Source: a virus
Lineage: Duplodnaviria; Heunggongvirae; Uroviricota; Caudoviricetes
Strand: one strand, 5' to 3'
Length of the DNA stretch: 64,000 nt
Virus record (IMG/VR): IMGVR_UViG_2541047712_000002
A program made the position numbers and the translations under genes. Below, piece after piece: positions 11,074 to 64,000 of the stretch (position 1 is the first letter of the stretch; each line of letters starts with the position of its first letter). Under the pieces are notes generated by a model that worked only from the letters and a program-made list of their open reading frames with translations, was not told where the DNA came from and ran no database searches.

Positions 11074-11533
11074 GCTTGCGATATAACAATAGCAAACACT
11101 CATAATCTAAAAGTATTGAGTCTACATAAAACTCACGCCTTAACCTCATGACAATCAGGCAAAAATAACAATAGAAACTATTTAAAATTTTATTTTTTTT
11201 ATATTTAATCTAAACATTATTTTATCTTAACCCTTTGTTTTTTAAGAAATTCATGCAGATCACAAATATTTGAAAAACAATATTATTACCTGGCTTGTGT
11301 GTTTTTTATTGATTTTAAACACCACGATTATTGTCTTTGTCAGAATAATAGTCTAGGTTATTTGGCTTGTGCAGATCTTTTATCTATAATCGTTGTTTGA
11401 TGGGTTTATATTTTTCAGTAAACTTCAAAAAAAAACACGAATGTCTAACTAGGTTATATTCAGTTCATTTTTGTCAAATTATTAAATTATCACCTGGCTA
11501 AACTGATAACATTTACCTACTCAGGTGGCTGAA

Positions 11534-11821
11534 ATGAGGATTTCGTTAAATGAAAAAATAAAGGGAGAACGGTTTAATACGCCGGGAAACATGTCAAGGG
11601 AGCACTTTAACTTACTAATTGAGCTATCACCCATAAGTAGCGAGAAGGTAAGATTAGCTTTATACGATTTTTTCGTTGACGGAGTAACACGTAAGGAAGC
11701 GTGCACCAGACACAATGTTTCACAAGGATATTTTTCTATTAGTGTAAGAAAATTCATTCAGGTTAATGATAGAGTAACAAAGGCTGTTAAATATTACTTG
11801 CCGAAATACTTAATTGTATAG
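11534..11821 (+). CDS. PapB/FocB-family fimbrial transcriptional regulator
   Basis: NMSREHFNLLIELSPISSEKVRLALYDFFVDGVTRKEACTRHNVSQGYFSISVRKF matches the PapB family pattern; sits upstream of the fimbrial subunit gene. Confidence 0.65.
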   Translation: MRISLNEKIKGERFNTPGNMSREHFNLLIELSPISSEKVRLALYDFFVDGVTRKEACTRHNVSQGYFSISVRKFIQVNDRVTKAVKYYLPKYLIV

Positions 11822-11932
11822 CTCTGTTTTTTGATAATGGAGGTGGTTAAACAATAAAAACCGTAATATAAAACACATTCAGTTCTTAATATTTTATTTT
11901 TCCATTTAATTTTATTTAAAGATAGGTTAGAT

Positions 11933-12574
11933 ATGAAAAAGCTGACTCTTATTGCAACGTTAATGGCATCTGCTATGTCATTCTCATCTCACGCTGCTAC
12001 AACATCAGCAAGCGTGAATATTACCGGCTCGATCGTTCCATCTGCATGTGCAATTAGCGCCAGTGCAAATGGAGGTACTATTGACTTTGGGAAAATCCTT
12101 TCATCAGAACTTGGTGAGCAGGGTGTTACACGTAAGGCAAAGAACGATACTCTTACTATTACGTGTGATAAAGATACTACGGCCGTAGTAAAAGTTAGTG
12201 GAAGCAATGGTGTAGATGGCAACACTTATAATTCAGATAAAGACTTCGTTAAAATTGCTGTGCAATTTACCGACGTAAATGTCACTGGCGGTAATGCTAC
12301 AAATAAATTCCTCGTATCTAACGCAGCATCTGTAGATTTAGATAATCTGACGGCAGCAGGTTTTACCACCGCAGCAGGAAATAAACCGTTATTCCCGTTC
12401 AATGGAAACTATCTCGCCGTTGCTGATACAAACAATAGCGTTGGTACATTTAAGACATTGACTGCAAATTATAGCGTCAGCGCGGTAGTGCAAAACGCTT
12501 CTGCTAAACGAGCTCTTACCCAAGGTGAACAAACCTTCGGTGGCGCAGTTACATTCGAACTGAACTATCTATAA
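11933..12574 (+). CDS. fimbrial major subunit (chaperone-usher pilin)
   Basis: signal peptide MKKLTLIATLMASAMSFSSHA, Cys pair, C-terminal donor-strand-like ...FGGAVTFELNYL. Confidence 0.8.
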   Translation: MKKLTLIATLMASAMSFSSHAATTSASVNITGSIVPSACAISASANGGTIDFGKILSSELGEQGVTRKAKNDTLTITCDKDTTAVVKVSGSNGVDGNTYNSDKDFVKIAVQFTDVNVTGGNATNKFLVSNAASVDLDNLTAAGFTTAAGNKPLFPFNGNYLAVADTNNSVGTFKTLTANYSVSAVVQNASAKRALTQGEQTFGGAVTFELNYL

Positions 12575-12626
12575 CCCATAATTAATAAACAGTAACGGAG
12601 TAACCTCCGTTACTGTTATAAAAAAC

Positions 12627-13295
12627 ATGATCAAAAGAATATTTCTACCTATATTAATGAGCATTCCATGTTCAGTATATGCTTTAGGAATGCAACCTGA
12701 AACAACCGTTTTAATATTTAACGAAGAGAAGAATGAAGCTTCTATTTCTGTTAAGAATACAAACAGTGTGCCAAGCCTACTTCAAACAAAAATTGTGGAT
12801 ATAGGGGAAGCTGAAAATGTTCTAGTATTATCTTCACCATCAATAGTTAAAATAGAACCAGGAGAGTCTCAAATAGTAAGATTCTTTTTGAAAAAGAATT
12901 CTGATTTTGATACTCAGATACTTAAGAGAGTAAGATTTTTAGGTGTGCCTGCAAAGCAAGAAAGCAACAAAGAGAATTCATCTTTAACTTTTACAGTAGG
13001 TCAAAGTATCCCTCTTCTGATAAACCCTGTGGGGCTAAAAGTTGATCGAGAACCATGGAAACACTTAACGTATAGTTTCGATGGAAGAAATATTATTATT
13101 TCCAACCCATCTAAATATATCGTTAGAATGTATCCTGAAGTTAAAGTAAATGGAAAAAAAATAAAAGTCGAGCAGTCATATATTACCCCTAGAACAAAGC
13201 TGACCATTAAGTATGAGAGACCGCCATCTGAAATAACAATTGTACCAGTTGGTTTATATGGTGAACTTAGAGATGAATATCAAATCAAGAATTAA
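12627..13295 (+). CDS. periplasmic fimbrial chaperone (PapD-like)
   Basis: signal peptide, position between pilin and usher. Confidence 0.7.
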   Translation: MIKRIFLPILMSIPCSVYALGMQPETTVLIFNEEKNEASISVKNTNSVPSLLQTKIVDIGEAENVLVLSSPSIVKIEPGESQIVRFFLKKNSDFDTQILKRVRFLGVPAKQESNKENSSLTFTVGQSIPLLINPVGLKVDREPWKHLTYSFDGRNIIISNPSKYIVRMYPEVKVNGKKIKVEQSYITPRTKLTIKYERPPSEITIVPVGLYGELRDEYQIKN

Positions 13296-15669
13296 AATAT
13301 CTAAAAAATTATTAGCCGTTTTTATCTCTTTATATGTATCAAATGTTTACGCAGAAGCCTATTATTTTGATGATATAGAGTTGAAAACTATTGGATTATC
13401 AAAAGATGCAGGTAACACCTTATTAAAATCTGATAGATTTCAACCCGGGACTTATCATGTAAATATAGTTTTAAATAATTTGCCTACCAATTACCATGGA
13501 AAAATTCTTATTAACAATAACGGTTCTCCTTGTATCACAGGTTCGTTGCTGGAGGACATAGGAATAAATATAAGCAGGTTGGCATTCGACCATGACTTGT
13601 GTTTGAAAGAGTCTCATAAGGAAGGTGTCTTTTTTTATACTAAACCAAAAAGCCAGTCCATTGAAATATATGTCCCTATTAGTTATCTTTTATCTAATGA
13701 AAGAACATATAGCCATGGTGGTACTGCAGCTATTTTTAACTATAACATTCATGCATTAAATTCACGAGGAAAATTTGGTAACACGAATAACTACACAGCT
13801 TTTCTTACATCCGGATTTAACACTGACGATTGGATATTTCGTAACAAAACTATCGTAAGTTCCTATGATGGAAATAACGACATTAAAAACTCTGAATTAT
13901 TTGCCCAAAAAACTTTTGATGGGAGTGGTAAAACGCTAAAAGTCGGTAGTATAGATTCATTTGACCAGTTTTATGGTATGTCTTTGATTGGTTTAAATTT
14001 GAGTCCAGAATCAACATTTTCTAGTGGAATGTCCACTACAATAACAGGTTTTTCTAATGATGACTCTCAAGTGGAGATCTATCAGGCAGGGCAGCTTGTG
14101 TATGTAGGGCAAGTACGGGCAGGCCGTTATAATATTGACTCAGTACCTGTTCTTAACACTCAAACCCCTTTCGAGGTTGTTTTAGTTAATCAAAATGGAA
14201 CGAGATCAAAAAGAACAATAACAACTGCGGAGGCACTTATAAACTTAAAACAAAAACAAAGCAATGGCTTTTCATTGTCTATTGGAAAAGCGAACGATTT
14301 TAAAAGCTCAATATTTAATGAACCTGTTGTATTAACTACGAATTATGGTTGGGATACCCTTGGTAATTACACTTTTAGCAGTGGCAGCTTAATTACAAAT
14401 CAATTCTATTCATTGGCTGGCAGTGTTACATACTCATCATCGAGTAAGAATAATATTACTTTAACTAATTATGTGTCGTATTTAGATTTCAAAGATAATT
14501 TGAATAAAAAACGTATTGGAAACAGTTCAAGCATAACTCTTTCAAATCAATTTTACGACAATGTTAAAATGACGAACGCTTTTATTTATAGAACAAGTGG
14601 CTATAGAGGGATTGAAGATTTAAGCTCAGATGATTTCTGGAATTATAAATGGCAACAAACTAATAGTATATTTGCATCGTTGAAAAGTTTTGGCACCTTT
14701 GGTCTTACATATTCATTGAATGAGAGAAGTGGTCATCGTGAAAACAGCTACGGTGTGTCATGGGGAACAAACATCTATAAAGCTTATTTGAGCACAAGCA
14801 TTCAAAAGCAGCGTGTAAAATATAAAGATGATTATTCTAATGAAACTAGGTTTTATGCCCAGCTATCAATTCCTTTATCCAATAACCAAGGGATAAACTC
14901 GTCATATTCTTCTGGCAAAAAATGGAGTCGGACTGCTGTTGACTATCGGCAATATAATAGTAACACATTTAACTATGGCCTCGGTTATGCAAATGAGCAA
15001 TATGCTTCCACATCTATCAATGCAGGTTACATAGAGGCATCTAAAACATTCAGGACAACTCATGTTGGAGCAAGATACAATTTTAACCAAAACTATAAAT
15101 CACTAGCAAGTTATGCAAGCGGTGGATTACTGATAAATAATAATGCAATCACTTTATCGCCATATGAAATTGGTGACACCTTTGCCTTGATAAGAGTTGG
15201 AAATTATCCCGGTATAGAATTACAAACACCAAACGGTAAGGTATGGACTGATAATCGAGGTAATGCTGTAGCCTCTAACTTGAATCCATATACTGCAAAC
15301 CAAATTCAAGTAGTACCAGAAAACTCACCTCGTAATATAGATGTAATGCAAGGCATAAAAAAGTCGACTCCATTTAAAGGAAGCGTTAATCAAATAAGAT
15401 TTGATGCTAAGAAAGTCCAGAGATTATTGGTATATGCAGTAGACGCGCTGAATAAACCTTTACCTTACAACGCCGAAGTAGTAAATCTGGATGATAACAC
15501 AATTATGGGATTTGTAGATCATGATGGTTTAATATTCTTCAGTGACATACCATCAAAAGCTGTTAAGGTAAATATCACACAAAATCAAAGTTGCATAATT
15601 GATTTTAGCAAGTATAAAAAAACAGAAGTTAATGAAATATTTAGCACGACACATCTAACTTGTAAATAA
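13273..15669 (+). CDS. outer-membrane fimbrial usher
   Basis: ~800 aa, signal peptide, N-terminal YYFDD...FQPGTYHVNIVLNN usher motif, C-terminal Cys pair; start taken at ATG 13273 rather than the overlapping track start 13240. Confidence 0.8.
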   Translation: MNIKSRIKISKKLLAVFISLYVSNVYAEAYYFDDIELKTIGLSKDAGNTLLKSDRFQPGTYHVNIVLNNLPTNYHGKILINNNGSPCITGSLLEDIGINISRLAFDHDLCLKESHKEGVFFYTKPKSQSIEIYVPISYLLSNERTYSHGGTAAIFNYNIHALNSRGKFGNTNNYTAFLTSGFNTDDWIFRNKTIVSSYDGNNDIKNSELFAQKTFDGSGKTLKVGSIDSFDQFYGMSLIGLNLSPESTFSSGMSTTITGFSNDDSQVEIYQAGQLVYVGQVRAGRYNIDSVPVLNTQTPFEVVLVNQNGTRSKRTITTAEALINLKQKQSNGFSLSIGKANDFKSSIFNEPVVLTTNYGWDTLGNYTFSSGSLITNQFYSLAGSVTYSSSSKNNITLTNYVSYLDFKDNLNKKRIGNSSSITLSNQFYDNVKMTNAFIYRTSGYRGIEDLSSDDFWNYKWQQTNSIFASLKSFGTFGLTYSLNERSGHRENSYGVSWGTNIYKAYLSTSIQKQRVKYKDDYSNETRFYAQLSIPLSNNQGINSSYSSGKKWSRTAVDYRQYNSNTFNYGLGYANEQYASTSINAGYIEASKTFRTTHVGARYNFNQNYKSLASYASGGLLINNNAITLSPYEIGDTFALIRVGNYPGIELQTPNGKVWTDNRGNAVASNLNPYTANQIQVVPENSPRNIDVMQGIKKSTPFKGSVNQIRFDAKKVQRLLVYAVDALNKPLPYNAEVVNLDDNTIMGFVDHDGLIFFSDIPSKAVKVNITQNQSCIIDFSKYKKTEVNEIFSTTHLTCK

Positions 15670-15683
15670 GCTTTGAGGATCTC

Positions 15684-16199
15684 ATGTTTAAATTTTTTAT
15701 ATTGACATGCTCTTTGTTTTTATGCACAACCTGTTTTGCAGCAGAGTGTTCTATAACCAGCTCGCCAAATAATATATCTTTAGGTGATTTTTCCTTTGGT
15801 TCTCTAACTAAGGAAAAGGTAGCAGATCGATATTATTACACCATGAAAAAAGATATTATGATTAGTGCAAAATGTAGGAATGCATCTAACATATCATTTG
15901 TCTATTCTGCACCATATAACGGTATGGGTTTTACAATTGGTGGTGTTGATGGTTATTATACAATCAAAGTAAATAAGTTTATAGTTAATGGGGTTAGTAG
16001 GGAAGTTAGGTATGTAGACACTAACAAGAAAGTTGATTTTATTTTACCTGAGACCGCAGTTCACACTGCGATTGGAGGTGAAGATTATAGCGTTGACGTT
16101 AACTTAATGCTAAACATAGCTTTCTATTTTAATCCAAATACATCCTTAGGCAATTACAGTATTTTTACAACTGGCGAGTTTCATCTCCAAGCTCTTTAA
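15684..16199 (+). CDS. fimbrial minor subunit / putative tip adhesin
   Basis: signal peptide MFKFFILTCSLFLCTTCFA, last gene of the chaperone-usher operon. Confidence 0.6.
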   Translation: MFKFFILTCSLFLCTTCFAAECSITSSPNNISLGDFSFGSLTKEKVADRYYYTMKKDIMISAKCRNASNISFVYSAPYNGMGFTIGGVDGYYTIKVNKFIVNGVSREVRYVDTNKKVDFILPETAVHTAIGGEDYSVDVNLMLNIAFYFNPNTSLGNYSIFTTGEFHLQAL

Positions 16200-16462: not shown

Positions 16463-17566
16463 ATGAAAAATAGCTTTGACAGAGCACGCGCAGCGGAGAA
16501 CACCTCAAAAGAGGCGATTGAGTATCTCGAAAGAGCATCTCAAATGCAGGCCGTTATGATCTCGCAGGTTAGCAATGACATGAGATTCTCAGACGCATTC
16601 ATGTTATTCACTCGCTTATCTCTGCTGATAACAAGACGTCGACCAGAGATCGCTGTTCATTGTATTTTGATACATGTTTTGCCGCACATTGCAGATATAA
16701 AAGTAAGTGACATTAATAGGTTCATGGTGAACCAACTGGTCAACCCACTAATACTGGATGGCAAAATTGTTATGGGCCGCCGCGTTTTCTCTCTGATGAA
16801 GCAGTTCCTTAGCTGGTGTGCCTTCCAGGGGATGATCGACGTATCACCATTAAACGATATGTCACTGAATAAAGTTGCCGGTGGCGCAAAGCCAACACCT
16901 CGCGAACGGAAGCTGACCGACGCAGAGGTATGGGTGTTCTGGAATATCTGGGACTACTTCAATGTGTGCGCAGGTACAAAATGGGCAGCCAGGCTATGTC
17001 TTGTATCCGCAAGACGACCTGATGAAGTACTGCGGGCCAGAAAAAGTGAGTTCAACCTTCAGCGTGGAGTTTGGAATCAAGGCAAGAGGAACAAATCTGC
17101 CCGTGAGCATTCGCTGCCTTTAAGCACATTAATGCGCACATGTATTGAAGAGTTGTTCGAATATGGTAAAGACAGCCAGTGGCTTGTGCCTTCGAATAAA
17201 AAAATCGGGAAAGACCTTCCTATGTCTAAAGTGGCAATAGCCCAGGCATTACGTCGTATTCTGGAACGACCAGAACTGATGGAGCTTGAGCCATTTACAC
17301 CCCGAGATTTGCGCCGTACTGCGCGTAGTTACTTCCCAGCATTAGGCATAAGCCAGGAGGTATCACGTAAAATCATGAACCACAGTCTTGAGGGGATAGA
17401 TCGGGTCTACGACCGGCACGATTATATGGACGAGATGCGAGACGCCTTAGAAAGTTTCTCGACGTACATCGCATCAATCGTAGAGCAACCCGATTTAGAC
17501 GAAATTGACCACAAATTTAAGGGAGATCGTCTATCAACAGAGCTTATTCGTGTAAATTTTTCATAG
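16463..17566 (+). CDS. tyrosine recombinase / integrase (P4-like)
   Basis: C-terminal catalytic region ...FTPRDLRRTARSYF...NHSLEGIDRVYDRHDY; first His of the HxxR box is replaced by Arg. Confidence 0.75.
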   Translation: MKNSFDRARAAENTSKEAIEYLERASQMQAVMISQVSNDMRFSDAFMLFTRLSLLITRRRPEIAVHCILIHVLPHIADIKVSDINRFMVNQLVNPLILDGKIVMGRRVFSLMKQFLSWCAFQGMIDVSPLNDMSLNKVAGGAKPTPRERKLTDAEVWVFWNIWDYFNVCAGTKWAARLCLVSARRPDEVLRARKSEFNLQRGVWNQGKRNKSAREHSLPLSTLMRTCIEELFEYGKDSQWLVPSNKKIGKDLPMSKVAIAQALRRILERPELMELEPFTPRDLRRTARSYFPALGISQEVSRKIMNHSLEGIDRVYDRHDYMDEMRDALESFSTYIASIVEQPDLDEIDHKFKGDRLSTELIRVNFS

Positions 17567-34984: not shown

Positions 34985-35316
34985 AGGCCATCCCATTCGC
35001 GCTGTTGTTCCTTTCTTCGATCGTTGTGGCCGACACCACTGTTTATCAGTGTGAAATGTCTGTAGCCGACGTTAAGAATGGCGCTCTTACCGACGTCATA
35101 AAAGCACCATATGGAGCGATGGTCGTAGACAGCGGCGACCAGTTCTATGTTGTGCGTGACGATCGAGTGTTGTCATCCCCATATCTCACAAATCGTAATG
35201 GCAAATTAACCGGCGTCGGAGAAGACCACTTCGTATACAACAAATACAAGGGCTTCTATGGCGTTCACGCTTCTCAGCAAAGCTACCTTTTCGATGACTG
35301 CAAGGAGGTTGGATAA
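34981..35316 (+). CDS. secreted/periplasmic small protein
   Basis: signal peptide MKAIPFALLFLSSIVVA, two Cys. Confidence 0.45.
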   Translation: MKAIPFALLFLSSIVVADTTVYQCEMSVADVKNGALTDVIKAPYGAMVVDSGDQFYVVRDDRVLSSPYLTNRNGKLTGVGEDHFVYNKYKGFYGVHASQQSYLFDDCKEVG

Positions 35317-35528
35317 TGGCATTAACACTGGCAGGTCTGGAAATCGAGAAAACAAGCGGCTACTGGCGTGCTAAGGGTTTCAAGCAGCCTGGCATTCTTG
35401 AGCGTCTGGAACGTGAAGATGGGTATATCGTCCACCAGCGGCGTGAATGGCGTATGTACGATCCAGAAACAGGAAAACTGACTACAAAAGCCGGAACACT
35501 TTGGGGTCTGTTGAAGAAAATACACTAA
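35316..35528 (+). CDS. hypothetical protein
   Basis: 70-aa ORF, ATGG overlap with previous stop. Confidence 0.35.
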   Translation: MALTLAGLEIEKTSGYWRAKGFKQPGILERLEREDGYIVHQRREWRMYDPETGKLTTKAGTLWGLLKKIH

Positions 35529-35536
35529 TAGCACCA

Positions 35537-36012
35537 ACCACTGCGGTGAGTAGTCTGCTCACCGCATTCGTATCCAGCTCATTATCCACTGTAGTCAGTA
35601 ACAAAACCTTCCTACATATCTGCTAACCACTGTAGCGAGTAGACAGCCTTTCATTCGCATCAAACAACCACTATGGTGAGTATTGGAGTGAGATGTCCAG
35701 CGGGTATCCACTATGGTGAGTAAGCCTTTGCTGTTTTCAGTGGATATCCACTCGCCACAGTGGATACGCTCAAAGATGAGGGCGACAACAACCACTATAG
35801 ACAGTAAATTTTCCAAGATACCCAGTGACCACTAACCTCGCAGCCCTTGTTTCATCAGTGTTAGTGATCACTAACATTTAATTCAGTATTTGCATTCTAC
35901 TGCCTACAGTGGTTATCAACAGATAACGATACTCACTATAGTGGATAGCGAATTACAGATATAAGTGAGGCTCACTACAGTGGATAGTGAGCCTTACTAC
36001 TAACTACAGTGG
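35537..36012. repeat. iteron cluster downstream of repA (incA-like)
   Basis: at least 12 copies of core CCACTRYRG / CYRYAGTGG; about 8 in one orientation (35537-35830) and 4 inverted (35903-36012). Confidence 0.75.
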
Positions 36013-36017
36013 TTGGG

Positions 36018-37073
36018 CTATTTGCGAGTCTTTGCCTTGCGCAACTCTTCGAGAAGCGCCAGTTCTTCTTTACTCAACATGACCATTTTGCCTTCTTTTT
36101 CGTCAGGCACAACGTCGATAATGTCATCTTGATTCTCATCTGGGAGGCTATATTCCGTCTCATCATTATCGGTTTTTGTTGATATTTGTGCCTGGCGTAA
36201 CTTTGGCCGCCTATAGTGGATGACGAAGTAGACCGAGTTTCCGCGCTTAACTTCCGTGTAATCGAGATATCCTATCTCTCGCAGCTGTTCCATAGCCTTT
36301 CTTACCGTCGCATTCTGAGTAATAGTGCGACTTGTCAGATTAAGTCTGGCGCGTAAACGGGCTAGTGATATTGGTGCCGGATCAGGCGGCAAACTTTCAA
36401 TAAAAGTATAAAGCGCCTGAGCGGATTCTTTTCTTGAGAGTTCGTTTATAGCCCGGAGTTGCAGAAGAACCTTTTTGTCGAACTGGTAGAGTTCGAAAAT
36501 CTTGGGATCTGCTTTCAGTTCGACCGTATCGTGCTTGACACTATATTTTGCCGTTTGCACAAGATGCGTTACGTAAAACTCATCAGAGCCTTTGCTACGG
36601 AACGAGATGGTATTTGTGGCAATACGGCTTAGCGAACTGTCCAGGCGTTTGCGTAACTTCGCTGATGACCTGGCGGTCGGAATGCCACACAGCCTTACAA
36701 ACTCAACGAACGGCAACGTGACAGTATCGCCAACAACCTTGTGTTTGGCAAACGCGTGGATTATTCCCACCCACGTTTTAAAGTCGTTATCCATATCAAG
36801 CCGAAGGCCAGAGATCCTTATGTCTTCGTACCCTTCGGCTTTTGCCAGAGACAGCTGTTTGAGTTCAGCAGAGGCATCCATAGAGACCATTTGCCCCTTT
36901 CTTCCTCTGGATGTCGATTTCAGCGTCGGAACGAAGAGGCCCAGACGCATCAAAGCAACAGGCTGAACAGTGTTATTAGTGTTAGGAACCAACGTAACAA
37001 CTTCGCCTGTCTTTTTATCTGTTTCTGAAAATGCTTCAACGATCGCTATGTTTTTATTGCCGTTTTCGCTCAT
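36018..37073 (-). CDS. repA: iteron-binding replication initiator (RepA-like)
   Basis: 351-aa ORF flanked on both sides by iteron arrays sharing the same core; assignment is by context, no diagnostic protein motif. Confidence 0.65.
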
Positions 37074-37107
37074 TCCAAATGTCTCTTGTTATTCGACGGC
37101 TTTGGTG

Positions 37108-37222
37108 GCCTTTGCTGATTACAGTGGATAGTAGCACTCATCACAGCGGTTATCCTACCGTCTATAGTGGTTTTTCTCCTCTCTATAGTGGTTGCTTTGC
37201 TCCCTATAGTGGATTATTCGCT
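37108..37222. repeat. origin iteron array I: six direct repeats at 21-22 bp spacing
   Basis: TTACAGTGG 37108, TCACAGCGG 37130, CTATAGTGG at 37151, 37172, 37193, 37214. Confidence 0.8.
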
Positions 37223-37272
37223 CTCTATAGTGGATATCGATCATGTCTGAAGGCAGATGGCACAACGGTTTG

Positions 37273-37345
37273 AGGTGGGCGGGGATCTTATTGGGTCTTT
37301 ATGGGTCTCTTTGGTTCTCTTTGTGATCTGAATTACTGGATCGGG
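37273..37345. promoter_or_regulatory. GATC sites and DnaA box between the iteron arrays
   Basis: GATC at 37273, 37314, 37328; perfect DnaA box TGTGGATAA at 37337-37345; 8/9 box tgtggatat at 37384; AT-rich stretch 37420-37500. Confidence 0.6.
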
Positions 37346-37519
37346 CCTGTGGATAAAAATCAGAGGATTTCAAGAACAGGTAACTCTACTCTTCTGTGGA
37401 TATTTAAGGACATAAGAATCATGACTAAGAGTAGAGTTTAAAATATATCTATGTATATCAGTATGTTAATGAAGAATTAAGTCATTAAGTTATCCATAAA
37501 AGACAATGTGCTCTACTCT

Positions 37520-37614
37520 CTACAGTGGATATATACAGCTCTCCAGAGTGGTTGTTTTACTCTTCATAGCGGTTATTCAGCTCTCTACAGAGGTTTCTTT
37601 GCTCTCCATAGTGG
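37520..37614. repeat. origin iteron array II: five direct repeats at 21-23 bp spacing
   Basis: CTACAGTGG 37520, CCAGAGTGG 37543, TCATAGCGG 37564, CTACAGAGG 37585, CCATAGTGG 37606. Confidence 0.75.
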
Positions 37615-37657
37615 ATGGCAACACCCTTTCAGACCAGTAACCGCAACGGCTAGAGGC

Positions 37658-37729
37658 GATCGGGGATCTCTTTGGATCTTCTATTTGATCTTACTTGGGA
37701 TCTCTTATTTGGATCTATCCAGTGGATAA
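37658..37729. promoter_or_regulatory. dense GATC cluster plus DnaA-box-like site
   Basis: six GATC within 58 bp (37658-37715), then AGTGGATAA at 37721-37729. Confidence 0.6.
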
Positions 37730-37816
37730 CTGGGATAAGTAAAACAGGCAAATGCAGATTAAGGTATGCCTAATGAGTTATCGTAGCATCGGCCAATAAC
37801 TACTGAAAAAACGATT

Positions 37817-38461
37817 ATGGATCTAAAACGCACGCGCTGGGTTCGTCGTCTTGAGGACGGCTCCTACACTATCGAATCAAATTCCAACCTGAATAAGCAG
37901 AAGTTACTTTGTGATATCTGCGGTATAGCGGCGAAGTGCCCGATCTACGAAACCAGAATTAAACTTGATAAGGCTGGTGTGAACTTTCATTTGAATAGTT
38001 GTATCAGGTACGTTCCATTGCTCGCATTTCGTAAACCGATCATCGGATTGGATGCGCCCTACTTCAACACACTCCGTTCAGGAGTAACGTGGCGAGATCG
38101 TTTATCACCAGACAAACTGATTTGCCTTGTATCCGCAGATACAGGAAAAATCATTCGTTTTGGGAAAGTAGACAAGGTTTACTCAGGCCCAGTTGACGAG
38201 ATGTTGCGGAAACACAGCCGGTTTAATCACCTCTGCATGGGTGGTGAGAAAATCGAGAAGGTTGAAGAAGTGATCCGCAAATCCTACGGACACTTCCTGA
38301 CCAAAGATAGCCTGCTCACTGCAATCTACATCAGACATGTAAAACGTGAGTTCGACCTTGAATACCATAGCGAAGAAGAACTGAACCTTGTCGATCCACG
38401 TCCTAAAGCTGGCGTCATAAGCATAAATGCAGCGCGTAAAAAGCCCACTGACGCGCTGTAA
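37817..38461 (+). CDS. hypothetical protein adjacent to the origin
   Basis: 214-aa ORF; no Walker motif, so not a ParA. Confidence 0.4.
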   Translation: MDLKRTRWVRRLEDGSYTIESNSNLNKQKLLCDICGIAAKCPIYETRIKLDKAGVNFHLNSCIRYVPLLAFRKPIIGLDAPYFNTLRSGVTWRDRLSPDKLICLVSADTGKIIRFGKVDKVYSGPVDEMLRKHSRFNHLCMGGEKIEKVEEVIRKSYGHFLTKDSLLTAIYIRHVKREFDLEYHSEEELNLVDPRPKAGVISINAARKKPTDAL

Positions 38462-52842: not shown

Positions 52843-53436
52843 ATGATTGCAGCCGAAAAAATCAAACAGCGAAAGCGCGACAACTCTCTTCGTGACCTCT
52901 GGAGAACACCTGATTGGCTGTTTTCTGCCATTCAACGTTATCTTGGAGTGACATTTGATGTTGACGTTGCCTGCAACAAGGACAACGCAAAGCTGCCTAA
53001 TTTCATAGGCATTGAGCGTGATGCTTTGAAATCTGAATGGGGACAGCCAGGTACAATTGCCTTCCTCAATCCACCCTACTCCAAAATCTCCCCCTGGATT
53101 GATGCTGCTATACGTGAGCAGGCTCGCGGAGTTACAACAGTGATGCTAATTCCTCAATCCCTCGATACAAAGTGGTATGAGCGTGCAACAGAGTATGCGA
53201 ATGAGACGATTATTCTGTCTGGTGGCCGCGTAGCGTTTGTCGAGCCTGACGTCAATTTGGGTCAGGTAGAAGTAAACATCAACCCCGGTGGCAGTATGCT
53301 CGTTGTTTTTCGAGGATTCTGTCAGGACGCTGGGCACTCTATAAGCAAGATCCCTTTGGACGTCATGAAAAGTCTGGGAGGGTATGATCCTGCGAATGTG
53401 ATCAGGAAAAAAAGACCATCAAAGAAGGCTGCTTAG
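52843..53436 (+). CDS. DNA N6-adenine methyltransferase (small phage Dam-like)
   Basis: NPPY catalytic motif (AFLNPPYSK), N-terminal LWRTPDWLF pattern, 197 aa. Confidence 0.65.
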   Translation: MIAAEKIKQRKRDNSLRDLWRTPDWLFSAIQRYLGVTFDVDVACNKDNAKLPNFIGIERDALKSEWGQPGTIAFLNPPYSKISPWIDAAIREQARGVTTVMLIPQSLDTKWYERATEYANETIILSGGRVAFVEPDVNLGQVEVNINPGGSMLVVFRGFCQDAGHSISKIPLDVMKSLGGYDPANVIRKKRPSKKAA

Positions 53437-58308: not shown

Positions 58309-59994
58309 ATGAATACAGCCCTTTCCATCATCGACGATGCCAACTCAAACACTGCTATCGACTATCGGCAGGAAATGAACGTCATCCACGAAATTGTGGC
58401 CGAGTGCGAGAAAGAGATCGCCTTCATGTATCAGGTTCACGACTTCGTTTATGGCGACGAACGCCACAACATGATTAATCGCCTGCTGAGACTAAACCAT
58501 CGACCAGATGAAGATCGCTCGCGTTTAAATCGAGGTTGGTTGGATAAAGTCGATCTGGAATGGGTGAAACAGAATATTTGGGCCGAGTACTGGAGGAAGG
58601 TCACGGACATGACTAACGTTTTGCTGATCATGCCAGCTTCCCGTCGAGATGAGTGGCGCGAGCAGTTTATAGAGGGCAAACAGGAAGTCATCAAAACTGA
58701 CAGAACCGGCTACCAGATGAAGGTTAAAGAGTTCGTTGGTGTACCGGAGTTCAAAGCAGAAACGGTCATACCCACGATGCTTAATTTGCTGAATGACAGG
58801 CACAAATATCTCTCTGAGCGCGTGTATGGCTTGTTTAAGGCGCTGAGTCCTGCGCACAAGACAAATAAGACAAACGGTTTCAGCGAGCGTCTGATAATCG
58901 CTGACTGCATTTCTGATTTCTGGCGGGACAGCGTTAGCGTGAACTATCGCAAAGAGGACTACATCGACGATCTGCGTGTCTTGCTTCATTTCTTCGCGCA
59001 CAAAGAATTTATTACCATCAACCGCACTGCTGAGGTGCTATCAGCTGCGTATCGGGCAAACGACTGCCAGACCGGTGACTGGATGAACGTCGATGGAAAT
59101 CTGATGCGCGTGAAGATGTTCAAGAACGGCAACGTTCACTTTGAAATACATCCTGACGTGGCCTGGAAGTTGAATGAGGTGCTGGCTTACAGTATGCCTG
59201 CTGCAATTCCCGCGCCATGCCGAACTGCGCCAAAAACACGGGCACCAAAGCAGTTCGGGTTAATCCAGAAGACGATCTCCGTGCCGGTTCGCACTGCGCT
59301 TCGTGACGGGCGATTGAGCAAAGACAAAGGCGTATGGTACTTCTCTGATTCAGCTCTCCAGAAGTCGCAGGTGGAAGAGCTTGAGCGCACACTGAGCTTC
59401 ATTGGCGGCGTGCAGGAGAAAAAGCACTGGCAGTTCCCGTATGAGATCGGCCATACGCTAAATACGATTGTGGCTACCGGATTAATACCGGATACAAAAT
59501 CACACCAGTTCTACCCTACCCCACGCTTGATTGCTGAGTACGTTGCCAGAGCCACTGAATTGAAGTCTGGTGAGAAGCTGCTGGAGCCTCAAGCCGGACG
59601 TGGGGATCTTCTGGCCTATATCAACGCCGATCTGGAAGATGTTACCTGCATAGAAATCGCACCTCTCTTCGCTGATATCCTGCGCGGAAAAGGGTATACG
59701 AACACGATTTGCTGCGACTTCATAAAGTGGTCTGAGGACAACGTAGGTTATCAGTTCGACAAAATCGTTATGAACCCGCCGTACTCGCTTGGTCGTCATA
59801 GAGAGCACACGCTGGCTGCGCTGGGGCATCTGAAAGTCGGCGGGCGTCTTGTAGCAGTATTGCCGGGCACTGCGCCAATACTGGACTGGATGACGATGGA
59901 TAATTACGTTTATGCCAGAGGGAAGTCGTTTACCAACGAGTTTGAAGACACAGGGATCACAGTCAGCGTATACGTTTTCAAACGCGTTAAATGA
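58309..59994 (+). CDS. DNA methyltransferase (NPPY type) with large N-terminal domain of unknown function
   Basis: C-terminal motif I LLEPQAGRGDLL and motif IV VMNPPY; about 390 N-terminal residues unassigned. Confidence 0.6.
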   Translation: MNTALSIIDDANSNTAIDYRQEMNVIHEIVAECEKEIAFMYQVHDFVYGDERHNMINRLLRLNHRPDEDRSRLNRGWLDKVDLEWVKQNIWAEYWRKVTDMTNVLLIMPASRRDEWREQFIEGKQEVIKTDRTGYQMKVKEFVGVPEFKAETVIPTMLNLLNDRHKYLSERVYGLFKALSPAHKTNKTNGFSERLIIADCISDFWRDSVSVNYRKEDYIDDLRVLLHFFAHKEFITINRTAEVLSAAYRANDCQTGDWMNVDGNLMRVKMFKNGNVHFEIHPDVAWKLNEVLAYSMPAAIPAPCRTAPKTRAPKQFGLIQKTISVPVRTALRDGRLSKDKGVWYFSDSALQKSQVEELERTLSFIGGVQEKKHWQFPYEIGHTLNTIVATGLIPDTKSHQFYPTPRLIAEYVARATELKSGEKLLEPQAGRGDLLAYINADLEDVTCIEIAPLFADILRGKGYTNTICCDFIKWSEDNVGYQFDKIVMNPPYSLGRHREHTLAALGHLKVGGRLVAVLPGTAPILDWMTMDNYVYARGKSFTNEFEDTGITVSVYVFKRVK

Positions 59995-61326: not shown

Positions 61327-61716
61327 ATGGGCTTCCCTTCTCCTGCGGCGGATTATGCTGAGAGCCGTATTTCTCTTGATCAGCAGATAATTAGACATCC
61401 TTCAGCGACCTACTTCATGAGGGCAGCTGATAGTCATCATCGTGAGGGAATATTACAGGGTGCATTGCTGGTGGTCGATTCCTCACTTACCCCGGTTGAT
61501 GGTTCTCTGCTTGTATGCGCTCTGGATGGGGAATATCGCGTAAAAAGATACCGGAAGTACCCACGTCAGCATCTGGAGGATTTAAGAACCGGTAAGAAGG
61601 AAGCATTGCCAAAGGATGACGATGGATGCACGGGCAGCAATGCCGTGTTTGGTGTGATCACTCACATTATCAACGACGCAAGAAGTGGCGAGTTTGATGA
61701 TTGTCCCGTGATGTAG
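61327..61716 (+). CDS. UmuD'-like S24 peptidase-family protein lacking the N-terminal arm
   Basis: starts MGFPSPAADY, matching UmuD from Gly25 onward (after the Cys24-Gly25 cleavage site); Ser and Lys of the S24 dyad retained; in-frame TGA immediately upstream excludes a longer N-terminus. Confidence 0.7.
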   Translation: MGFPSPAADYAESRISLDQQIIRHPSATYFMRAADSHHREGILQGALLVVDSSLTPVDGSLLVCALDGEYRVKRYRKYPRQHLEDLRTGKKEALPKDDDGCTGSNAVFGVITHIINDARSGEFDDCPVM

Positions 61717-61753
61717 GAGAACTGATTAGGCGGTGCAATGCACCGCCTTTTTA

Positions 61754-62854
61754 TCACACTGCGCGGAATGCGATTTCGCCAGGTATTACTTCACCTTGCC
61801 AATACATTTGGGCAGCAACGCGATCTGCGAGGTCACGATAAATAGCCGTAAATTCGCTATCTGGACGACTAATAACGGTTGGTGTTCCGTTATCCAGATC
61901 TTCACGAAGAGAGATATGAAGTGGCATTTGGCCTAACAACTGCGTGTTGTATTTCTCGGCCAGTTTCTGTGCGCCACCGGTGCCAAAAATTGGCTCGTGA
62001 TGACCGCAGTTACTGCAAATATGCACACTCATGTTTTCGACGATACCCAGTACCGGCACTTCGACTTTTTCGAACATCACAATGCCTTTCTTCGCATCGA
62101 TCAGCGCGATGTCTTGCGGCGTAGTTACCACAACCGCACCAGTTACAGGAATGTTCTGCGCCAGTGTCAATTGAATGTCACCGGTGCCTGGCGGCATGTC
62201 GAGCACCAGATAATCCAGATCCGGCCATAAGGTTTCTTGCAACATTTGCATCAACGCCTTGCTCGCCATCGGGCCACGCCACACCATCGCGTTGTCGTCA
62301 GTGACCAGATAACCAATTGAGTTGGTTGCCAGGCCATGAGACATGATAGGTGCCATGTGAGTGCCGTCCGGTGAGGTTGGACGTTGGTTTTCCGCACCCA
62401 GCATGGTTGGAATTGATGGACCGTAGATATCGGCATCCAAAATACCGACTTTCGCACCTTCAGCAGCCAACGCCAGTGCCAAGTTTACTGCTGTGGACGA
62501 TTTGCCTACACCGCCCTTGCCTGAGCTGACGGCGATAATGTTCTTAACGCCATTAATGCCTGGTTGGTTTTTGACGCGCTTAAGCGTGGCAATGTTGTAC
62601 GACAGCTTCCAGTCAATAGCCTTTGCGCCAGTGATACGGAGCAGATCACCACTACATTGCTCTTTCAGGTCTTCAAAAGGCTTATTCCACACGAAAGGCA
62701 TGATTAGTTCGACATGCAGTGTGTCATCCATCAACGCAACATGGTGTAACGCTTTAAGCGTAGTCAGGTTGTGTTTCAGGGTTGGGTGCTGAAAATTAGC
62801 CAGCGTACCGGCTACCATTGCTCTCAGGGCATCCGGCGATTTGGACTCGCTCAT
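61754..62854 (-). CDS. apbC: Fe-S cluster carrier ATPase Mrp/ApbC
   Basis: near-identical to enterobacterial Mrp across its length (P-loop KGGVGKSS, CSNC motif). Confidence 0.9.
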   Translation of the reverse strand: MSESKSPDALRAMVAGTLANFQHPTLKHNLTTLKALHHVALMDDTLHVELIMPFVWNKPFEDLKEQCSGDLLRITGAKAIDWKLSYNIATLKRVKNQPGINGVKNIIAVSSGKGGVGKSSTAVNLALALAAEGAKVGILDADIYGPSIPTMLGAENQRPTSPDGTHMAPIMSHGLATNSIGYLVTDDNAMVWRGPMASKALMQMLQETLWPDLDYLVLDMPPGTGDIQLTLAQNIPVTGAVVVTTPQDIALIDAKKGIVMFEKVEVPVLGIVENMSVHICSNCGHHEPIFGTGGAQKLAEKYNTQLLGQMPLHISLREDLDNGTPTVISRPDSEFTAIYRDLADRVAAQMYWQGEVIPGEIAFRAV

Positions 62855-63011
62855 CCCGTCTCCTTTATTTTAATTTGCGCAATTGTCGCCTTGTAGTGTA
62901 CTCCAGCTACGACATTTAATCATTTATGAGAAATGCTGTTATCACATGGCAGACATAAGGCCATTTTGTTACTATCAAGCCCCTTTTCACTACAAAGAAG
63001 TAATGCCTACT

Positions 63012-64000
63012 ATGACCCAAGTCGCGAAGAAAATTCTGGTGACGTGCGCGCTGCCGTACGCTAACGGCTCAATCCACCTCGGCCATATGCTGGAGCACAT
63101 CCAGGCTGATGTCTGGGTTCGTTACCAGCGAATGCGCGGCCACGAGGTTAATTTCATCTGTGCCGACGATGCCCACGGTACGCCGATCATGCTGAAAGCA
63201 CAGCAGCTTGGTATCACACCGGAGCAGATGATTGGCGAAATGAGTCAGGAACACCAGACTGATTTCGCAGGCTTTAATATCAGCTACGACAACTATCACT
63301 CGACGCACAGCGAAGAGAACCGTCAGTTGTCTGAGCTTATCTATACTCGCCTGAAAGAGAACGGTTTTATTAAAAACCGCACCATCTCTCAGTTGTACGA
63401 CCCGGAAAAAGGTATGTTTCTGCCGGATCGTTTTGTAAAAGGCACCTGCCCGAAATGTAAAGCGCCAGATCAATACGGCGATAACTGTGAAGTCTGCGGC
63501 GCAACATATAGCCCGACTGAATTGATCGAGCCGAAATCGGTGGTTTCTGGCGCTACCCCGGTAATGCGTGATTCCGAACACTTCTTCTTTGATCTGCCTT
63601 CTTTCAGCGAAATGTTGCAGGCATGGACCCGCAGCGGCGCGTTGCAGGAGCAGGTGGCGAACAAAATGCAGGAATGGTTTGAATCCGGCCTGCAACAGTG
63701 GGATATCTCCCGAGATGCGCCTTACTTCGGTTTTGAAATTCCGAACGCGCCGGGCAAATATTTCTACGTCTGGCTGGACGCGCCGATTGGCTACATGGGT
63801 TCCTTCAAGAATCTGTGCGACAAGCGCGGCGATACCACCAGCTTCGATGAATACTGGAAGAAAGACTCCACCGCCGAGCTGTACCACTTCATCGGTAAAG
63901 ATATTGTTTACTTCCACAGCCTGTTCTGGCCTGCCATGCTGGAAGGCAGCAACTTCCGCAAGCCGACCAACCTGTTTGTTCACGGCTATGTGACGGTGAA
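63012..64000 (+). CDS. metG: methionyl-tRNA synthetase, 5' portion (runs off the window)
   Basis: [35 protein letters not shown] with HIGH motif; absent from the ORF track because no stop lies in the window. Confidence 0.9.

Follow-up and report, generated by a model that had tools for sequence, protein, structure and literature searches.

The probable replicon of an SSU5/pLF82-type phage-plasmid encodes a P1/RepFIB-family initiator and carries a tandemly duplicated oriR-like module

The stretch of viral DNA analysed here (64,000 nucleotides, hereafter the window) carries on its minus strand, at 36018-37073, a repA gene whose product of 351 aa is identified by Pfam and by homology as an iteron-binding replication initiator with WH1 and WH2 domains. 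Both Rep_3 profiles lie above their Pfam cutoffs: Rep3_N (WH1, PF01051) matches residues 115-225 with 42.3 bits (cutoff 22.4; E = 1.3e-10), and Rep3_C (WH2, PF21205) matches residues 236-281 with 22.6 bits, barely over its cutoff of 21.1 (E = 1.3e-4). The closest characterised initiators are those of the RepFIB plasmids (P307, F, pO157, pO86A1), with 61% identity to RepA of pO86A1 over 330 aa (BLASTP, E = 2e-142). P1 RepA is 49% identical over 267 aa (BLASTP, E = 5e-93), and the RepA proteins of phage SSU5 and of Yersinia pestis pFra are 91% identical to that of the window. A search of NCBIfam gave no meaningful match, and a sequence search against PDB chains returned only noise (best E = 0.29, to Csm3), so that no solved close relative of RepA was found.

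The gene is flanked by iterons, as the first-pass annotation had noted, and the count stands at 11 copies upstream and 12 downstream. Their core, CTAYAGTGGWT, is confined to this locus: all 13 exact matches in the window fall within 35.5-37.75 kb, a segment that makes up 3.5% of its length, and so do 19 of the 23 matches obtained when up to one mismatch is allowed. The upstream copies form two arrays of direct repeats on the minus strand, and their 21-bp period was independently reported by Tandem Repeats Finder. The proximal array (37112-37239) has six iterons spaced by 21-22 bp, 60-166 nt 5' of the repA ATG, and is probably the promoter and operator of this gene. The distal array (37513-37620) has five iterons spaced by 21-23 bp, which are probably the origin (incC-equivalent) iterons, and its position is kept in SSU5, pFra, Kluyvera, and Buttiauxella. 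The 12 downstream copies (35533-36018) occur in both orientations, at spacings of about 20-48 bp with one gap of 111 bp, and the first of them overlaps the repA stop codon. A single further iteron lies within the coding sequence of repA, on the minus strand at 36204-36225 (exact core at 36211-36221); it is also present in SSU5, pFra, and L010-L013, and mostly absent from more distant relatives. Among six clade members, iteron cores are 92.7% invariant, against 69% for the spacers.

The upstream region also contains the signals expected for host factors. A perfect DnaA box, TTATCCACA (TGTGGATAA on the plus strand), lies at 37348-37356; the first-pass annotation had rightly recognised such a box and had misplaced it at 37337-37345. 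It belongs to a minus-strand segment (37280-37356) in which the box is accompanied by decayed phased repeats of 10-11 bp that retain GATC at 37284, 37325, and 37339. Near-consensus boxes are found at 37395-37403 and at 37721-37729. The latter, TTATCCACT, is the same as the second box of P1 and forms, with a degenerate box (TTATCCCAG), a distal minus-strand pair at 37721-37738. Six GATC (Dam) sites, in repeats phased at about 11 bp, occupy 37658-37715 exactly as annotated; this is the sole such cluster in the window (P = 0.001, under random placement, for any 58-bp span with at least six sites), and P1 oriR has five Dam sites that align with it. GATC sites are 97.5% invariant across the clade, against 69% for spacers, and the cluster probably serves as the element for origin unwinding and SeqA sequestration, by analogy with P1. 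The annotated AT-rich tract is also present, as a spacer of 22-23% GC at 37400-37490 between the two arrays. It is the least conserved segment of the region, and its AT-richness is specific to the lineage of the window, the spacers of SSU5 (43% GC against 27%) and pFra not being AT-rich; for these reasons we rejected it as a general, conserved unwinding element. The promoter-like matches near repA are all weak (9-10 of 12 positions): they include a sigma-70-like match inside the proximal array, read from 37240 to 37213 (9 of 12), and a site in the AT-rich spacer, TTAACA-16-TATATT, that points towards repA.

Once these features are put on the same map, the upstream region turns out to consist of an entire oriR-like module duplicated in tandem; within each copy a DnaA box is followed by GATC repeats and these by iterons. 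The two copies are 67% identical over 230 nt, with an alignment score of 47 against 2.2 +/- 1.4 for shuffled sequences, and the proximal DnaA/GATC part (37280-37356), collinear with the distal copy, shows almost no variation within the clade. The double module extends from phage-plasmids of Escherichia, Salmonella, and Yersinia to plasmids of Rahnella, Erwinia, Pantoea, Cedecea, and Xenorhabdus. It is a mildly new point, the duplicated layout being common to several enterobacterial genera.

The overall organisation is that of the P1 RepA/RepFIB family: a homologous initiator, an array of about five direct iterons two helical turns apart, an outer DnaA box with at least five GATC sites, and a downstream control array. 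The P1/F-style arrangement of oriR/incC and incA proposed in the first-pass annotation is thus supported by RepA homology, by the order of elements on the P1 map, and by the DNA alignment of the distal module. In P1 (IncY), as in the window, DnaA boxes are followed by phased GATC repeats, five iterons at 21-22 bp, repA, and a control array with wider spacing. In both, the repA-proximal copies of the control array have the orientation of the origin iterons and the distal ones are inverted, and the end of repA runs into the first control iteron. P1 oriR DNA can be aligned directly with the DnaA/GATC segment of the distal module. The two replicons differ in that the iteron sequences are unrelated, that the oriR-like module is present twice in tandem in the window (5 + 6 iterons) and once in P1, that the control iterons number 12 against nine, and that the RepA of the window has 65 extra residues, mainly in an acidic/basic C-terminal tail. 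Unlike P1, the window has no DnaA box beside the repA start and no parABS operon after the control array, ParA being encoded elsewhere in the related phage Cyrano. RepFIB likewise has origin iterons upstream, accompanied by a DnaA box and five GATC sites, and a mixed-orientation control array downstream (PMC11983097). Its upstream iterons are reported to be associated with the origin, and its downstream iterons by themselves displace FIB plasmids (PMC11983097). In classic RepFIB the upstream module is single (B C D D' D''), the iteron is CATAAGCTGTAG, and the start codon is CTG (PMC11983097); the window differs in all three respects, with a duplicated module, another iteron, and an ATG start. 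The layout of the 12-iteron array, with its mixed orientation and mostly wider, irregular spacing, is the same as that of P1 incA and of the RepFIB downstream arrays, and by this analogy it would be the incA/EFGHIJ equivalent, acting in copy control and incompatibility.

The duplication raises the question of which copy is the origin. A number of arguments favour the distal module. First, none of its six GATC sites has been lost, and a comparison of 10 dual-module genomes gives five or six sites in the distal copy against two to five in the proximal one; the distal copy has at least as many in 10 of 10 genomes and more in nine. Second, in these same 10 genomes the distal copy is nearer to single-module origins than the proximal copy is. 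Third, the middle GATC sites of the proximal module have been lost in nearly every dual-module lineage examined, and P1-type origins depend on their Dam (GATC) sites. We therefore regard the distal module as most likely the working origin, and the proximal module, in which GATC sites are partly lost, as most likely acting mainly as the operator and promoter of repA; both assignments are read from sequence comparison. The roles could instead be reversed, with the proximal module (37112-37356) firing and the distal one acting as an auxiliary copy-control or enhancer array, or as a second, alternative origin. The origin iterons of P1 also contain the repA promoter, and the proximal module is placed relative to repA like the single module of P1 and of Pantoea LPP-1-like plasmids, with the DnaA box near -258 to -283 and the iterons at -145 to -60. 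Furthermore, no DnaA box other than that of the proximal module is perfect, the module varies hardly at all within the clade, where it is at least as conserved as the distal one, and in several Pantoea plasmids it still has four or five GATC sites. Its conservation, perfect box, and P1-like position mean that it could still fire, and although we judge this arrangement unlikely given the fate of its Dam sites, it deserves real weight.

With the distal module as the preferred origin, homologous systems suggest how the locus might work. RepA monomers would attach to the origin array, whose 19-22 bp iterons are phased, and, together with host DnaA at the adjoining box or boxes, would open the neighbouring GATC-bearing phased repeats, leading to theta replication. 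Full Dam methylation of the GATC cluster would be required for this opening, and SeqA bound to hemimethylated sites would block immediate re-initiation. RepA bound to the promoter-proximal iterons would repress repA, and the 12 downstream iterons would titrate RepA and pair ("handcuff") with the origin iterons, resulting in low copy number and incompatibility. The Dam/SeqA sensitivity and copy control proposed in the first-pass annotation are thus predicted from homology, from the conservation of GATC sites, and from the likeness to P1 oriR, and the element may be expected, from the extrachromosomal state of the near-identical pLF82/Cyrano and the plasmid location of its matches in E. coli, to replicate autonomously at low copy with iteron-based incompatibility. 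Control by antisense RNA finds no sign in the locus, since 34.5-38.6 kb gave no Rfam match at E <= 1. A bioRxiv preprint on repA-linked copy-number mutants of a phage-plasmid proved inapplicable, as it concerns a different family (p-p47) with CopA/CopT antisense control.

Comparison with relatives shows that the replicon behaves as an exchangeable unit. The window belongs with the SSU5 supergroup of phage-plasmids, which includes pLF82/Cyrano, Salmonella phage SSU5, S. Typhi pHCM2, and Y. pestis pMT1/pFra, and the positions of iterons, GATC sites, and DnaA boxes in SSU5 and pFra are identical to its own. Elements of the H89/PhiR41_1/pJN2-26 type have backbones 96-98% identical to the window and carry in the same slot, between a 70-aa cra-like ORF and a 214-aa ORF, another replicon. 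This one also has a P1-family RepA and an origin with DnaA boxes, GATC sites, and iterons, but its RepA is only 49-51% identical to that of the window, its iterons are ACCGCTGACAGCATAC, there is just one module upstream, and the iterons downstream all have the same orientation. The difference between the two types is a swap of the replicon cassette. More generally, across relatives the sequence of the repeat varies with RepA and the DnaA/GATC core is retained: ACCGCTGACAGCATAC occurs in PhiR41_1 and pJN2-26, TTCACTGTAATCAG in Pantoea, and P1 has an iteron of its own. Such exchange as a unit between otherwise near-identical backbones is what one expects of a functional incompatibility determinant, and it argues against the idea that the RepA/iteron cassette is vestigial or accessory and that the prophage is maintained from another origin by a phage replisome (DnaE, helicase, primase, ligase). 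The window does encode a large set of phage replication genes, and the RepA locus has no inflection in GC skew; yet RepA is intact, there is strong conservation across genera of iterons, GATC sites, and DnaA boxes, and the same type of replicon occurs on non-phage plasmids among those surveyed, e.g., Y. pestis pFra (IncFIB) and Pantoea/Erwinia contigs of large size. Across the window, GC skew shows no switch at the replicon; it tracks gene orientation and is thus uninformative on the origin. Taken together, these observations make a dispensable cassette very improbable.

The element as a whole can also be assigned, the window being practically Cyrano/pLF82 itself. Aligned segments of the window are 97-99.9% identical to phage Cyrano (pLF82) and to circular plasmids of 107-115 kb; the replicon is 99.8% identical to that of Cyrano/pLF82, and the aligned backbone 97.7-98.5%. 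SSU5 itself is more distant (79-83% identity), and Cyrano covers only 67% of positions 1-25000 of the window. The window and Cyrano have different cargo: the former carries, at 11.5-16.2 kb, an operon for chaperone-usher fimbriae. The variable region at 8.6-16.2 kb yielded no defence genes with PADLOC. All parts of the window map, at 98-99.9% identity, onto Cyrano and onto circular, non-mobilizable E. coli plasmids of about 107-115 kb, and its backbone is collinear with SSU5/pLF82-type elements that are carried as circular plasmids. MOB-suite assigns to IncFIB pFra as well as the many circular plasmids that, like Cyrano/pLF82, are 99.8-99.9% identical to the window, and the replicon is presumably of the IncFIB(pLF82-PhagePlasmid) type. 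PlasmidFinder type names ending in pLF82-PhagePlasmid and H89-PhagePlasmid are in use in surveillance papers, and the replication genes of SSU5 (IncFIB) are included in typing tools. Cyrano/pLF82 exists outside the chromosome, with a copy number per chromosome of about 5.5 in overnight cultures, and produces virions (PMC9928086); this number exceeds the classic unit copy of P1. The replicon being already typed as IncFIB, and pLF82 being experimentally extrachromosomal, the module was already known: it is an ordinary, catalogued plasmid-replication module, made of a RepA initiator and its repeated binding sites. It is very probable, then, that the locus serves an SSU5/pLF82-type phage-plasmid as plasmid-prophage replicon, one of the P1 RepA/RepFIB family that works as its homologues suggest.

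The first-pass annotation had suggested instead that a phage-plasmid was trapped in the chromosome beside mrp-metG, or that plasmid and chromosomal sequences were misassembled. The features that prompted this are real: the window encodes a tyrosine integrase (16463-17566), and it ends in apbC(mrp)-metG (61754-64000), a gene pair conserved in the E. coli chromosome. Yet the block formed by an S24 peptidase, apbC, and metG is annotated within Cyrano itself (CYRAN_98-100); it is 97-98.5% identical in many plasmids of about 107-115 kb and only 80-90% identical in most matching records, chromosomal copies included. No junction with genuine chromosomal DNA was found at mrp-metG, the block matching plasmid copies best. 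The integrase gene belongs to the conserved backbone of Cyrano and of further SSU5-like elements, individual plasmids span positions 39001-64000 and 5-24999 each as one unbroken piece, and a search of 5,426 complete E. coli genomes placed the replicon on plasmids in 354 of 354 matches and in no chromosome, all of which leaves chromosomal capture or misassembly scarcely credible. Phage-plasmids carry the apbC(mrp)-metG pair as conserved cargo, made of diverged paralogues of the chromosomal genes; SSU5, which does not align beyond about 60.7 kb of the window, appears to be without it.

Our analysis is mainly of corrective value, in that the window is an SSU5/pLF82-type phage-plasmid and not a piece of chromosome. 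Two further points are modestly interesting for biology. Alternative RepA/iteron cassettes in one slot should decide which phage-plasmids can coexist in a cell, and the swap described above should make the type found in the window and the H89/PhiR41_1/pJN2-26 type compatible. In P1, a single iteron array is used both for origin firing and for the autoregulation of RepA. We tentatively raise the possibility that the double module represents a functionally undescribed subtype of P1/RepFIB replicons, in which these two roles are split onto paralogous arrays, or in which two origins are used under different conditions. The second point is that the oriR-like duplication, conserved across genera, offers a natural test of the uncoupling of origin function from initiator autoregulation in iteron replicons.

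On every feature that can be judged from sequence, the replicon belongs to the family of P1 (oriR/incC-repA-incA) and RepFIB. The 351-aa ORF reported in the first-pass annotation on the minus strand (36018-37073) is present, and the profile search proposed for its product, RepA, matched both Pfam Rep3_N (42.3 bits, cutoff 22.4) and Rep3_C (22.6 bits, cutoff 21.1); NCBIfam gave no meaningful match to RepA, and a PDB sequence search with it nothing useful. The experimentally studied RepA of P1 aligns with it at 49% over 267 aa (E 5e-93), the RepFIB RepA of pO86A1 at 61% over 330 aa (E 2e-142), and the RepA proteins of Salmonella phage SSU5 and of the Yersinia pestis plasmid pFra/pMT1 are 91% identical to it. 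Relative to P1 RepA, it is slightly extended at the N-terminus and carries a charged tail, about 58 aa long, at the C-terminus. The annotated order in P1 is DnaA boxes, five Dam sites, five incC iterons containing PrepA, repA, and nine incA iterons, three of which point one way and six the other in a scan of the P1 sequence. The homology to P1 and RepFIB and the same arrangement of DnaA boxes, GATC sites, and iterons on both sides of repA bear out the P1/F-style layout proposed earlier. Unlike P1 and classic RepFIB, the window has a duplicated upstream module, 12 control iterons, a longer RepA, and a replicon without a linked par operon.

The iterons said to flank repA are genuine and far above chance: the 64-kb window contains 13 exact matches to CTAYAGTGGWT, every one of them within 35.5-37.75 kb (3.5% of the window), and 19 of its 23 matches with no more than one mismatch fall there too. 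A position-weight scan found 24 copies of a repeat unit of about 19-22 bp: five in the distal upstream array (37513-37620) and six in the proximal one, nearer to repA (37112-37239), both spaced at 21-23 bp; 12 in both orientations downstream (35533-36018), where spacing is mostly wider and irregular; and one within repA, with an exact core at 36211-36221. Tandem Repeats Finder independently recovered 21-bp periods, and periods of 10-12 bp across the GATC-bearing stretches. The intragenic core is close to where the similarity with P1 RepA stops; this iteron is kept in SSU5, pFra, Kluyvera, and Buttiauxella, is mostly missing from more distant relatives, and could reflect a coding constraint or be an additional RepA site. 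From one RepA clade to another the iteron sequence changes but the DnaA/GATC core persists, as expected if RepA binds the iterons. In a comparison of six members of the window's clade, invariance is 92.7% for iteron cores and 97.5% for GATC sites, against 69% for spacers and the remaining upstream DNA.

The six GATC sites at 37658-37715 stand as described, with no other such cluster in the window (P = 0.001 for at least six GATC in any 58-bp span under random placement). The perfect DnaA box also exists, 11 nt away from the position first assigned to it, at 37348-37356; near-consensus boxes lie at 37395-37403 and 37721-37729. The AT-rich tract was likewise recovered (37400-37490, 22-23% GC). 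As the least conserved segment among the six clade members, with an SSU5 equivalent (43% GC) that is not AT-rich, it is unlikely to be the essential unwinding element. A weak promoter-like match lies within the proximal array, whose end is 60 nt from the repA ATG. The strongest sigma-70-like match of the region (TTAACA-16-TATATT, 10/12; 37442-37469, minus strand) is directed towards repA from the lineage-specific AT-rich spacer between the modules, and might serve as another promoter of repA, activate the origin through transcription, or simply reflect AT-richness. GC skew over the window was uninformative on the origin, and an Rfam search of the replicon region returned nothing useful.

By analogy with P1 and RepFIB, RepA monomers on the phased origin iterons would act with DnaA to unwind the neighbouring repeats, re-initiation would be controlled by Dam methylation and SeqA, RepA would repress its own promoter located within the iterons, and the downstream array would titrate RepA and handcuff the origin. 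In P1, re-initiation is gated by Dam methylation and SeqA. In RepFIB, plasmid displacement is brought about by the downstream block on its own and not by the upstream one, and the authors of that work favour intra- and inter-molecular handcuffing (PMC11983097). A preprint on repA-linked copy-number mutants is inapplicable, as it concerns a different phage-plasmid family under antisense-RNA control. The element encodes a predicted Dam-family N6-adenine methyltransferase (52843-53436; Pfam PF05869, E 5e-38), which might enable it to methylate its origin's GATC cluster without need of host Dam. The DUF4942 protein (58309-59994) is a possible second methyltransferase; Pfam gave DUF4942 alone, and the sole hint is an NPPY motif in its translated C-terminus.

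We charted the positions of iterons, DnaA boxes, and GATC sites in P1, RepFIB, SSU5, pFra, and a further two SSU5-like phages, and extended the mapping to 80 loci from species-representative genomes. The single module of P1 recurs in classic RepFIB, in replicons of the PhiR41_1/pJN2-26 type, and in the large Pantoea plasmids (L064-L089). Two tandem modules occur in the window, SSU5, pFra, Kluyvera, Buttiauxella, Rahnella, Erwinia, many Pantoea plasmids, Cedecea, and Xenorhabdus. In dual-module loci, the distal module runs from a DnaA box through 5-6 GATC to five iterons, and the proximal one from a DnaA box through 0-5 GATC to 5-6 iterons, leaving some 60 nt between its end and the ATG. The window's two modules are collinear, with 67% identity over 230 nt and an alignment score of 47 (shuffles, 2.2 +/- 1.4), and the distal DnaA/GATC segment can be aligned directly with P1 oriR (window TTATCCCAGTTATCCACTGGATAGATCCAAATAAGAGATCC..., P1 TTATCCACATTATCCACTGGATAGATCCAATAATCAGGTCC...). 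The distal copy is favoured as the origin proper for two reasons. First, it is richer in GATC (5-6) than the proximal copy in 9 of the 10 dual-module genomes examined; middle sites of the proximal copy are lost, having decayed to GAACC, GACCC, or GTTCC. Second, distal copies are closer to single-module origins (mean identity 0.686 versus 0.651). The position of the proximal module relative to repA and its perfect DnaA box suggest, as a less favoured alternative, that it may be the origin. Should the distal copy be the origin, the proximal array would be mainly the repA operator. Some Pantoea/Erwinia loci (L030-L036, L039-L041, L044-L045, L048-L053) carry a GATC cluster in both modules, 5-6 sites distal and 4-5 proximal; by this site content they represent a duplication intermediate, less decayed than the window's clade.

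Judged by nucleotide identity, the element is essentially pLF82/Cyrano. Escherichia phage Cyrano, present in E. coli LF82 as the phage-plasmid pLF82, is 99.8% identical over the replicon region; it is kept outside the chromosome, with about 5.5 copies for each chromosome, makes virions, and can be induced with ciprofloxacin (PMC9928086). The replicon region is matched at 99.9% by many E. coli and E. albertii plasmids that are circular, non-mobilizable, about 107-115 kb long, and typed IncFIB by MOB-suite. Among 5,426 complete E. coli genomes, all 354 matches to this region are on plasmids and none on a chromosome. Plasmid NZ_CP045191 spans 39001-64000 as a single piece (98.5%), a stretch also fully covered by Cyrano, and NZ_AP022542 spans 5-24999 as a single piece (98.8%), while Cyrano covers 67% of 1-25000 in five pieces. 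The earlier suggestion of capture in a chromosome or a chimeric contig is unsupported, given the plasmid-only matches, the one-piece plasmid coverage, and the presence of the S24 peptidase-apbC/mrp-metG block inside Cyrano (CYRAN_98-100). The integrase gene (16463-17566; Pfam Phage_integrase) belongs to the conserved backbone of Cyrano and other SSU5-like elements. The S24 peptidase-apbC/mrp-metG block is phage-plasmid cargo rather than a chromosomal junction, since it is annotated in Cyrano and is 97-98.5% identical to plasmid copies, whereas the majority of some 6,100 matching records, chromosomal copies among them, fall in the 80-90% band. In the window, diverged apbC/mrp and metG, encoding a second Fe-S carrier and a second methionyl-tRNA synthetase, lie beside the S24/LexA-like peptidase at 61327-64000; the SSU5 alignment stops at about 60.7 kb.

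The replicon cassette (35316-38461) is swapped in PhiR41_1 (L009) and pJN2-26 (L008). Their backbones are 96-98% identical to the window, yet the RepA in the same slot, between a 70-aa cra-like ORF and a 214-aa ORF, is just 49-51% identical, and their cassette differs in its iterons (ACCGCTGACAGCATAC) and in having one origin module instead of two. The swap is analogous to that of IncY/p0111 in P1-like elements (PMC7969092). Cargo varies too. A chaperone-usher fimbrial operon of low GC content (11525-16199, about 35%; PapB-type regulator, fimbrial subunit, PapD chaperone, usher, and a 171-aa ORF) lies directly upstream of the integrase; the usher is listed in plasmids covering 92-100% of window 1-25000 and is absent from Cyrano's listed features. 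Three tRNA genes (7832-8446) are Asn-GTT, Tyr-GTA, and Ser-TGA, whereas Cyrano's annotation gives Asn, Thr, and Ser at the equivalent position, so the tRNA set varies among near-identical phage-plasmids.

The SSU5 supergroup is a described group of phage-plasmids (SSU5_pHCM2, pKpn, pSLy3, pMT1; PMC7969092), SSU5 (IncFIB) replication genes are already in typing tools, and surveillance papers carry type names ending in pLF82-PhagePlasmid and H89-PhagePlasmid; the replicon finding is already known. We found no description of the conserved double-module origin in the searchable literature, a coverage that leaves out the older pMT1/pHCM2 papers, and this double-module origin is a modest lead.
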